A stretch of 64,000 nt of DNA, taken from Candidatus Moraniibacteriota bacterium (lineage in GTDB: Bacteria > Patescibacteriota > Minisyncoccia > Moranbacterales > DUUL01). The translations under genes and the position numbers were made by a program. Below the pieces are notes generated by a model that saw only the letters and a program-made list of their open reading frames with translations, was not told where the DNA came from and did no database searches. Numbering within the stretch: the first letter of the stretch is position 1; every line of letters starts with the position of its first letter. Below are positions 48,851-51,199 of the stretch, piece after piece. The stretch is taken from the NCBI GenBank assembly GCA_034522495.1, contig JAXHLG010000002.1, positions 1,000,486 to 1,064,485 of the forward strand, in the 5' to 3' direction.

Positions 48851-51199
48851 TCAATTTAACACCGCCTTCACCCTCCTCACGCCTGCGCTGGAGCTTTCTT
48901 CTTTGGCGATCTTGAAAGCGCCTTCGATCTCTCCGGTGTTTGTAACGTGCGGACCTCCGCAGATTTCCTTGGAATACCCTTCAATAGTATAGACTTTCAC
49001 CTTCTCTCCATATTTGTCTTCAAAAGTGCCTTGCGCGCCGGCTTCTTTGGCTTCTTCCAGCCCCATTTCTTCCTCTTTGACATCCACCTTGGCCCGGATT
49101 GCATCATTAACATATTCCTCAATTTCCTGAATCTGCTCCGGAGTCAGTTTGTCCGGATGAGTAAAGTCAAACCTGATTCTTTCTCCATTGATATTAGAAC
49201 CGGCTTGATGCACGTGATCGCCCAACACCTTCCTCATTCCCGATAACAACAAATGAGCCGCCGTGTGAAGCTGCTTGGTTTTTTCTTTAGTGTCGGCCAA
49301 GCCTCCTTTGAACATTCCCGCGCTGGCAGTTCTGGAAAGCTCTTGATGGCTTTTCAATTCCTTCTGAAACTCTTTTTCGTCCACCACCATAGTCTTTTCC
49401 TTGGCAAGCTCTCTAACCATTTCAATGGGAAATCCATAGGTCTGGTAAAGATCAAAGGCTTCCTTGCCGGTAATTTCATTACTCCGCTCTAAATGAGGCG
49501 GAAGAGCTTCATCCTCGATTGTCTTGACTTCATCCGGTTTTCCTTCGGCAAATTTCTGCAGGGCTTTGAAGCGATGAGAAATCTTGTTTTTATCTTCCTT
49601 CATTTCGGAAAAAGTATTCTCGTAACCCTCCGGAACGAAAATCGGGTCAAATCCGAATTCGAGTTTAGAGCTACCCAGCCTTTCTTCCGTTATCCTGCCC
49701 CTTACCTCTCCTTCATAGAAAGACAAATTTCTTCCGTCAAAGTGGGCTATCACGCATTTGGCCACAGCCTTTCTGTTTTTCCCTTCAGTCAAATCCAGCA
49801 GTCCCTGGGTGCTCATATAGTCAATAAACCACTTAATCAAAGCCCCCGGAAATCCGCTCCAGGCTTCCAGATGCAAAGAAGTGTCCTCTACAATGATCGG
49901 CTTTTTGAATTTTTTGTAGGCTTCAATTATCTTGTATTCGGCCACTTCTCGAGGCTCGATAGCTTGAACCTCCGGCAAAGATGATTTGACATAATCCAGC
50001 TCCAACCTGTCTCCGGTCAACTGGCGATATTCCTTTATCTTGTTAGGATTGGTGGAAATTAAAGACACCTTTCCTTTCTTGCCGGCAATTTTTTCAAACT
50101 CCTTTAAGCCTTTTTGCAAAGTTTTCCTGAATTTGGACTCTTCTTTTTCAATAACAGCAAGAATTTTGGATCGATTGACTTCCGGATACTGGTCTTTGTA
50201 GATATAGACCGCTTCCGCGGCCGCTTCTTTGGTAAAGTTTTTTTCCAATCCGAGTTTGTAGCCTTCCCTTATAGCCCTTCTTATCAATCTTCTGAGGATA
50301 TAGCCTCTTTCGCTATTGGAAGGCTCTACTCCGTCCGAGGCAATAAACACGGCAGCTTTCAAGTGATCGGCAATAATCCTGAGGGAAGTATAATAATCAT
50401 AATATTTTTTGTCCGACATTTCTTCCAGTTTTTCAATTATCGGCCAGAAAAGCTCGGTTTTGTAATCATCATTGATTCCGTTGATAACCGAAAGCATTCT
50501 CTCCATTCCCATGCCGGTGTCCACGTTCTGGCTGGGCAGCGTTTGGAAGCTGCCGTCGCGTGTTTTTTCATATTCCATAAAAACATTGTTCCAAATTTCC
50601 ACCCACCTGTCGTCGTTGGGATCGAATTTTTTGGGTAAATCTTCTTCTCTGCCACTCCAATAAAAAATCTCCGAATCCGGTCCGCAAGGTCCGGTTTGAC
50701 TGGGAGGCCCCCACCAATTTTCTTCTTTGTCCAGCTTGGCTATGCGGTCTTGGGAGAAACCCAGGTCCCTCCACGCTTGGAAAGACTCTTTGTCAAAAGG
50801 CGCGTCCGAATCTCCCATAAACACGGAAACTGCCATCTTCTCTTTGTCAAGGCCGAGCCATTGGGGGGAAGTGAGAAATTCATAGCTCCACTTAAGCGAT
50901 TCTTCTTTGAAATAATCTCCCAGGGACCAATTGCCCAGCATTTCAAAAAAAGTATGATGGGTGTCATCGCCCACTTCATCAATGTCGATTGTCCTGATGC
51001 ATTTTTGAACGCTGGCCAGTCGTTTTCCTTCAGGATGCTTTTCTCCCATCAAATAAGGAACCAGGGGCTGCATGCCGGAACTGATGAAAAGCGAGGTGGG
51101 ATCATTCTCGGGCGCCAGGGCTGCCGAAGGCAAAACGGCGTGGCCTCTTTCTTGGAAAAAATTCAAAAACTTCCCTCTTAATTCTTTAGCTGTGATCAT
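48851..51199 (-). CDS. alaS: Alanine--tRNA ligase with inserted ITPA/Ham1-type NTP pyrophosphatase domain; no C-Ala domain
   Basis: The catalytic motifs are [18 protein letters not shown] and [13 protein letters not shown], followed by the tRNA-recognition domain. The insert spans residues ~377-553 ([19 protein letters not shown]...ISHRFKAL). The editing domain carries HTAAHLL and CGGPHV. Confidence 0.9.
   Translation of the reverse strand: [782 protein letters not shown]

Follow-up and report, generated by a model that had tools for sequence, protein, structure and literature searches.

A Ham1/ITPA-type domain nested in the tRNA-recognition domain of a small alanyl-tRNA synthetase from Moranbacteria-like Patescibacteria

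Results

Gene and domain layout

The stretch of DNA analysed here, henceforth the window, comprises 64,000 nucleotides of contig JAXHLG010000002.1 from Candidatus Moraniibacteriota bacterium. Its reverse strand carries an alaS gene whose alanyl-tRNA synthetase (AlaRS) contains, nested in the tRNA-recognition domain, a complete Ham1/ITPA-type domain of the kind found in pyrophosphatases of non-canonical purine nucleoside triphosphates (NTPs). The gene, here termed alaS::ham1, is one uninterrupted open reading frame (ORF) of 782 residues with neither stop codon nor frameshift (Table 1) and, judged by its sequence, most likely represents the housekeeping AlaRS of a Moranbacteria-like Patescibacterium. 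In Pfam, tRNA-synt_2c (PF01411) matches residues 6-377 (E=2.5e-133) and a second stretch after the insert, Ham1p_like (PF01725) matches residues 380-552 over profile positions 3-185 of 186 (E=8.5e-39; 133.8 bits versus a gathering cutoff of 22.5), and tRNA_SAD (PF07973) matches residues 734-777 (E=5.5e-16). This is the outcome that the initial annotation, made by reading the sequence, had predicted for a profile search: an AlaRS core split in frame by a Ham1p_like match and followed by the editing domain. The outcomes that would have spoken against it, namely a missing Ham1 match or a break separating two genes, did not appear. The interval that it had marked, 49475-50071, corresponds exactly to residues 377-575, that is, to the Ham1 domain (377-552) and a 23-residue linker (553-575). 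Among the NCBIfam models, NF002436, the equivalog for short AlaRS (595 positions), reaches 754.4 bits with a cutoff set at 529, TIGR00344 (847 positions) matches in pieces only, and the best Ham1-type models span residues 377-552. The GC content is even along the gene, insert included, at 0.43-0.46. An intein or other self-excising insert was considered and rejected, as the junctions lack the required Cys/Ser/Thr on the N-terminal side and His-Asn followed by Cys/Ser/Thr on the C-terminal side, and no Hint or intein family of Pfam is matched.

Table 1. Features of the alaS::ham1 gene, in window coordinates
Feature	Position	Strand	Evidence
Complete alaS::ham1 ORF, 782 residues and stop codon	48851..51199	-	Single ORF; Pfam order tRNA-synt_2c, Ham1p_like, tRNA-synt_2c, tRNA_SAD; NF002436
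AlaRS part before the insert	50072..51199	-	Aligned with Aquifex aeolicus AlaRS 3-369 and Escherichia coli AlaRS 5-379; invariant Asn295; last helix 344-374 in the AlphaFold2 model
Inserted Ham1/ITPA-type non-canonical purine NTP pyrophosphatase domain, residues 377-552	49544..50071	-	PF01725, PDB sequence matches, invariant catalytic residues, model confidence, Foldseek
Linker, residues 553-575, from the Ham1 C-terminus back to the AlaRS chain; conserved G-K-P-D start, remainder variable	49475..49543	-	Identity, dN, model confidence
AlaRS part after the insert, residues 576-630, motif LYQTYGFP with Gln586	49310..49474	-	Aligned with A. aeolicus 376-426 and E. coli LYDTYGFP; Foldseek across the insert
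Editing domain, residues 631-782 (HxxxH 645-649, CxxxH 747-751, tRNA_SAD 734-777), and stop codon	48851..49309	-	Pfam; aligned with the Archaeoglobus fulgidus and Pyrococcus horikoshii AlaRS editing cores
Upstream copy of an 18-nucleotide imperfect direct repeat, AAATTGCCGGCAAGAAAG (K-I-A-G-K-K)	50074..50091	-	16/18 match to the downstream copy
Downstream copy of the flanking repeat, AAATTACCGGCAAGGAAG (E-I-T-G-K-E)	49459..49476	-	16/18 match to the upstream copy

The insertion site

Where in the synthetase does the insert sit? In the alignment with A. aeolicus AlaRS, residues 2-373 correspond to 3-369 and residues 573-623 to 376-426, so that about 200 residues of the 782-residue protein stand in place of a loop of 6. 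With the insert removed, the sequence is colinear with E. coli AlaRS, which puts the site of insertion between T389 and L390 (chain index +1), 10 residues ahead of the Asp in LYDTYGFP. This Asp400 reads G3 of the G3:U70 pair in tRNAAla (PMC11392972). Both alignments place the insert in the tRNA-recognition domain, as had been proposed, and the proposal that the flanking segments are normally joined by a short loop holds among 120 close relatives as well: the two flanking motifs are spaced by 17-52 residues in insert-free relatives, by 217-220 in Ham1 fusions and by 219 in the window protein.

The same loop (residues 366-585 in the window protein) also carries unrelated inserts of 30-95 residues in the Moranbacteria-like relatives P0018, P0042 and P0092 (679, 630 and 638 residues). 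The insert of P0018 adds about 95 residues, giving a motif spacing of 115, and has no Pfam match, and that of P0042 consists of a short tandem NGL(A/P)I(E/D)xVKA repeat. By these comparisons, the loop is a length-variable hot spot that is permissive of inserts.

In the window, the two copies of the 18-nucleotide repeat flank the insert exactly, and recombination between them would remove it in frame and restore the normal short loop. The nearest relative (locus L001) has the same repeat (17/19), both copies being encoded by synonymous codons that differ from those of the window, and the repeat is absent from the other loci found in GTDB genomes (L002-L007). An ancestral target-site duplication was rejected on this distribution; since L002-L007 lack it, the repeat is probably derived, or due to chance or codon bias.

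The insert and its predicted fold

Compared with sequences of known structure, the insert matches Mj0226 (4e-33), PH1917 (2e-29) and human ITPA (1.4e-28), and much more weakly E. coli YggV/RdgB (E = 2e-5 and 2.4e-4), which agrees with the initial impression that it is nearer to the archaeal and eukaryotic ITPA pattern than to E. coli RdgB. The four motif strings quoted in the initial annotation are all present, and in the alignment they fall on the motifs that form the catalytic sites of Mj0226, PH1917 and human ITPA. The insert is identical to human ITPA at the positions of K19, E44, D72, F149, D152, K172 and S176-H177-R178, the catalytic and substrate-binding residues of the ITPA structures, and all of these are invariant across the 17 fusion proteins described below.

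We built an AlphaFold2 model of the 782-residue protein on 120 sequences. Its mean predicted local distance difference test (pLDDT) score is 87.7, with values of 91-96 in the insert and of 69-78 in the linker; the sole stretch below 50 comprises residues 624-636, between the tRNA-recognition and editing domains. The structure prediction that had been called for thus yields a confidently folded insert of Ham1 alpha/beta topology, which Foldseek superposes on Mj0226 (1b78) with a template-modelling (TM) score of 0.88 and a root-mean-square deviation of 1.8 Å, and on human ITPA (2car/2j4e) with TM scores of 0.84-0.85. The N-terminal junction of the model is tight, helix 344-374 leading directly, after about 3 residues, into strand 378-382, and the return to the AlaRS chain at the C-terminal side requires the linker. 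Catalytic fragments of AlaRS align across the insert with target-normalised TM scores of 0.82-0.84; since these crystal fragments superpose across it, the AlaRS core is, in the model, undisturbed by the insert.

The structural relatives further include KomB, the Ham1-like subunit of the KomBC (Kongming) anti-phage complex (8zsg, 9v0g and 9xvc; TM 0.82-0.89). Nothing in the window points to a defence context.

The AlaRS scaffold

The host protein is a short-form, or "small", AlaRS. Its chain stops 5 residues after the tRNA_SAD match, which bears out the earlier remark that it has no C-Ala domain, and there is no beta-barrel, only the 13-residue low-confidence loop at 624-636. C-Ala mediates dimerisation and binding of the tRNA elbow (PMC10036535). 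The lack of C-Ala and beta-barrel is not special to the window protein; it belongs to the "small-AlaRS" scaffold already described for proteomes of the candidate phyla radiation (CPR), DPANN and Asgard archaea (bioRxiv 10.1101/2023.05.29.542759). Invariant in the clade of fusions are Asn295, the equivalent of E. coli Asn303, the class II core residues and the zinc motifs of the editing site, HxxxH (H645/H649) and CxxxH (C747/H751).

The position of E. coli Asp400 is occupied by Gln586 (49442-49444, reverse strand). Among the 114 closest small-AlaRS relatives, with or without insert, this position holds Gln in 103, Thr in 5, Ser in 4, and Glu and Asp in 1 each, so in this alignment Gln is a lineage-wide change in the pair of residues that reads tRNA identity. 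Such a replacement may be compatible with function, since the AlaRS of Tupanvirus keeps its G3:U70 specificity without either an Asn303- or an Asp400-type residue (PMC10036535).

Distribution of the fusion

The search of related genomes proposed in the initial annotation returned the same insertion many times over. In the protein collection searched, 17 clusters from about 56 contigs (NCBI, JGI, ENA and Logan), 66-100% identical, share the three Pfam domains; from rank 18 onward, the matches are AlaRS of 580-640 residues without Ham1, from Moranbacteria and other Patescibacteria. A scan of GTDB with one genome per species (185,579 genomes) yielded 7 loci, 62-79% identical to the insert, all with ORFs of 780-783 residues and Ham1 at an offset of about 377; the genomes concerned include JAWOGA01, DEIN01/UBA2773 and JAGYNP01. 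The remaining GTDB relatives of the insert are stand-alone genes of about 180 residues and at most 44% identity, L040 being an unchecked apparent exception. The synteny of alaS and ligA seen in the window is kept in 5 of the 7 fusion loci, and a 530-kb JGI contig and an independent Logan assembly show the same called order of PF01411, PF01725, PF01411 and PF07973. In a library of 1.84 billion proteins clustered at 50% identity, the family is a single representative (279 bits), followed by a match of 154 bits that is not an AlaRS. No other fusion of Ham1 with an aminoacyl-tRNA synthetase (aaRS) was found among the best 150 representatives of this library, nor among the 147 GTDB relatives, where the reading frame of L040 was left unchecked. 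In this high-GC locus (7424-10480), from a metagenome-assembled genome of Acidobacteriota, a 1018-residue reading frame has its Ham1 match at the C-terminal end; it could represent a further Ham1 fusion, or simply an ORF that extends too far because the DNA is rich in GC.

Two matters of labelling emerged alongside. Five of the fusion proteins (P0002, P0003, P0005, P0008 and P0009, 780 residues) are named "non-canonical purine NTP pyrophosphatase" by NCBI and JGI, that is, after the insert. Three loci (L002, L003 and L006; CAZDHE01, CAZXUS01 and CAYWJP01) are titled "uncultured Bdellovibrionales bacterium", yet carry a Moranbacteria-type alaS::ham1 that is 66-75% identical to that of the window, with ligA synteny in two of the three; their label looks wrong.

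Origin and selection

We computed neighbour-joining (NJ) trees with our own code and 200 bootstraps. The fusion-bearing proteins were monophyletic in 200 of 200 replicates on AlaRS-only columns, as were the inserts on Ham1 columns, and synonymous sites are saturated for most pairs within the clade. Together, these data point to a single old insertion that was then passed on vertically. A recent acquisition was rejected on the same grounds and on the uniform GC content.

The nearest stand-alone relatives of the insert, with 42-46% identity, are from DPANN archaea (Nanoarchaeota, Micrarchaeota, Aenigmatarchaeota and Woesearchaeota), and the same Ham1 type occurs free-standing in other Patescibacteria, namely in complete genomes of Nealsonbacteria, in Pacebacteria and in Nomurabacteria. 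Distances to the insert are 1.05 on average and 0.93 at minimum for DPANN archaea, versus 1.10 and 1.05 for the patescibacterial stand-alone proteins; on Ham1 columns, the NJ bootstraps support no sister group for the insert. By sequence distance, DPANN archaea are thus marginally the nearest among possible donors.

Across 16 full-length fusions, the mean pairwise identity is 82% for residues 1-250, 72% for residues 251-376, 76% for the Ham1 domain, 39% for the linker, 78% for residues 576-630 and 76% for the editing domain. The linker is conserved in length (21-23 residues), and its rate of non-synonymous substitution (dN) is 2-5 times that of the domains. For pairs with an estimable synonymous rate (dS), dN/dS lies at 0.057-0.10 in Ham1 and at 0.045-0.128 in the AlaRS parts, and reaches 0.15-0.48 in the linker. 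Measured by these rates, the insert is under purifying selection and evolves as slowly as the AlaRS parts.

Neighbourhood in the window

The neighbours of alaS::ham1 are ordinary housekeeping genes: a gatA-like amidase, ligA, rpsO, an NYN-domain protein, RNase J and a Pif1-like helicase. No second Ham1 gene was found in the window by tblastn, and positions 1-64000 hold no tRNA genes and no matches to Rfam families. Between alaS and ligA lies a gene for a cation-diffusion-facilitator transporter (47455-48693, reverse strand; Pfam Cation_efflux at residues 10-202) with a C-terminal extension of about 200 residues that has no Pfam match at E<=1e-5; the same gene stands at the same place in L001.

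Discussion

How might the two halves of this protein serve the cell? Building on its architecture, single origin, purifying selection, retained catalytic residues and predicted fold, we infer a bifunctional protein that probably combines an AlaRS with an ITP/dITP/XTP (inosine, deoxyinosine and xanthosine triphosphate) pyrophosphatase as two independent modules, the fusion chiefly securing their co-expression. A single ancestral event placed a complete Ham1/ITPA gene of archaeal/eukaryotic type in a surface loop that varies in length within the tRNA-recognition domain. In the scenario that we favour, the AlaRS part would activate alanine, charge tRNAAla and edit Ser/Gly-tRNAAla in the way of the insert-free relatives, and the nested domain would independently cleave deaminated purine nucleotides (ITP, dITP and XTP) to the monophosphate and pyrophosphate, using the Ham1 site formed by Lys, Glu, Asp, Phe-x-x-Asp and Lys-x-x-x-Ser-His-Arg. 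The arrangement would mainly guarantee that a small house-cleaning enzyme is constitutively co-expressed with an essential gene in a reduced genome, and would have been kept because both activities are needed there. As other Ham1 fusions join the domain end to end with enzymes of nucleotide metabolism, Ham1 can be seen as a portable, autonomous module. The initial annotation had offered both a coupling of nucleotide-pool sanitation to aminoacylation and a gene-economy fusion; sequence does not separate the two, and the data fit independent modules and give no positive sign of coupling.

Several observations nonetheless weigh against this reading. The insert does not reach the cutoffs of the NCBIfam equivalogs TIGR00042 (125.1 versus 145.35) and NF011396 (142.6 versus 203); it is a divergent family member, and its substrate range could differ from that of characterised ITPases. 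As the insertion site is 10 residues from the G3-reading position and the N-terminal junction is tight, the Ham1 domain may lie close to the acceptor stem of the tRNA and thereby affect charging. By analogy with Ham1/ITPA enzymes, which are homodimers, the insert may also impose dimerisation on an AlaRS that lacks C-Ala. Finally, a domain is less likely to end up nested in another protein by accident than to be fused to one of its ends, and the retention of the nested arrangement over saturated synonymous divergence could hint at a benefit beyond co-expression.

In a different reading, Ham1, placed beside the surface that binds the acceptor stem, would be functionally integrated with aminoacylation, be it through dimerisation by the usual Ham1 dimer interface in place of C-Ala, through contacts to the tRNA, or through charging that senses the ITP/XTP pool. 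Besides the position before the Asp400 equivalent and the tight junction, it can draw on a host scaffold devoid of the domain for dimerisation and elbow binding (PMC10036535), on the replacement of the canonical Asp by Gln in the lineage, and on the preservation of the nested arrangement under strong purifying selection. However, more than 100 relatives that have this small scaffold and this Gln but no insert evidently work, a purely structural or binding role would not need the full hydrolase catalytic set that has been kept, and the unrelated inserts in the same loop of relatives suggest a permissive rather than a functional site. We therefore regard integration as unlikely. Its more specific form, in which a Ham1 domain rigidly tethered by the acceptor-stem reading site of an AlaRS without C-Ala, beta-barrel and canonical Asp400 supplies dimerisation, a new tRNA contact or both, or else gates alanylation by the level of deaminated purine NTPs, appears to us distinctly improbable; if true, it would be the first instance in which the capture of a nucleotide-sanitising enzyme has remodelled the tRNA-recognition domain of an aaRS.

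In the opposite direction, the insert might be a catalytically dead or repurposed relic, a passenger tolerated in a permissive loop. The missed equivalog cutoffs and the acceptance of other inserts without recognisable function in this loop would be in keeping with such a history. Yet the insert is conserved like the essential AlaRS parts, at a dN/dS of 0.06-0.10, none of its catalytic residues varies within the clade, the match runs over the full length of the Pfam profile, and the fold is predicted with confidence, which makes a relic very unlikely. That two separate genes were artificially joined during assembly or binning is suggested by the a priori oddity of the architecture alone, and was rejected as practically negligible: the same uninterrupted ORF recurs, down to 66% identity, in four independent sources (17 clusters on about 56 contigs), in the 7 GTDB genomes, on the 530-kb contig and in the separate Logan assembly, both junctions lie in frame inside one gene, synteny is conserved, and GC is uniform. 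The preferred reading remains that of two independent modules in one chain.

What does the fusion add to our picture of AlaRS? Both domains, the small-AlaRS scaffold and the sequences themselves, which stand in public databases named after the insert only, are already known; our search of the literature on AlaRS with Ham1, ITPase, Patescibacteria or Moranbacteria found no paper that describes the architecture. It has been stated that AlaRS never recruited a new domain (PMC10036535). The clade described here is a natural counter-example, with a whole foreign enzyme nested in the tRNA-recognition domain under purifying selection. A loop that takes inserts of 0 to about 200 residues is useful for the engineering of AlaRS, and its site bears on the way in which the tRNA-recognition domain was assembled from two halves. 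The presence in a CPR housekeeping gene of an archaeal-type module whose nearest relatives are in DPANN archaea adds to the record of gene exchange among ultra-small cells. On the practical side, where the gene is named after its insert, automated or name-based reconstructions will report the essential alaS as missing. The case should clearly interest those who work on aaRS; its wider interest is moderate and would depend on whether the two halves turn out, in biochemical work, to interact.

Comparison with known systems

The closest described counterpart is the small-AlaRS (NF002436 / PRK01584; bioRxiv 10.1101/2023.05.29.542759), which, with the insert left aside, shares 60-66% identity with the window protein and has the same Gln at the Asp400 position; the window protein scores above the NF002436 cutoff. 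However, small-AlaRS proteins measure 580-640 residues with 17-52 between the flanking motifs, whereas the window protein has 219 there, with a complete Ham1 domain; Ham1 is not mentioned in the small-AlaRS preprint. The insert, in turn, resembles the stand-alone ITPases Mj0226 (1B78/2MJP), PH1917 and human ITPA (2CAR/2J4E), to which it is 36-40% identical, with all of their motifs and a predicted fold that agrees with theirs (TM 0.84-0.88). While these are free homodimers of about 185-195 residues, the insert is nested, tethered at both termini and below the equivalog cutoffs. Other fusions of the same archaeal Ham1 type are present in protein libraries, namely guanylate kinase-Ham1, Ham1-NUDIX, DUF218-Ham1, methyltransferase-Ham1 and tandem Ham1; they are joined end to end, mostly to partners from nucleotide metabolism, and none is nested or involves an aaRS.

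A natural discontinuity in the tRNA-recognition domain is also found in the split AlaRS of Nanoarchaeum equitans (alpha/beta; PMC11392972), whose alpha subunit is roughly the classical 368N fragment, ending at about E. coli residue 368 (PMC11392972). In both systems, the Asn303 equivalent lies on the N-terminal side of the discontinuity and the Asp400 equivalent on the C-terminal side. The sites are not the same, as the N. equitans breakpoint precedes the insertion point at E. coli T389/L390 by about 21 residues, with the helix that closes the N-terminal part lying between the two. Moreover, in N. equitans the gene is split with nothing inserted, while the chain of the window protein is continuous and holds a foreign enzyme. 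The mini-AlaRS of Tupanvirus (PMC10036535), finally, likewise departs from the AlaRS "prototype structure", lacking C-Ala and carrying a non-canonical residue at the Asp400 position. It did so, however, by domain loss, of the editing domain and C-Ala, whereas the window protein represents a domain gain.

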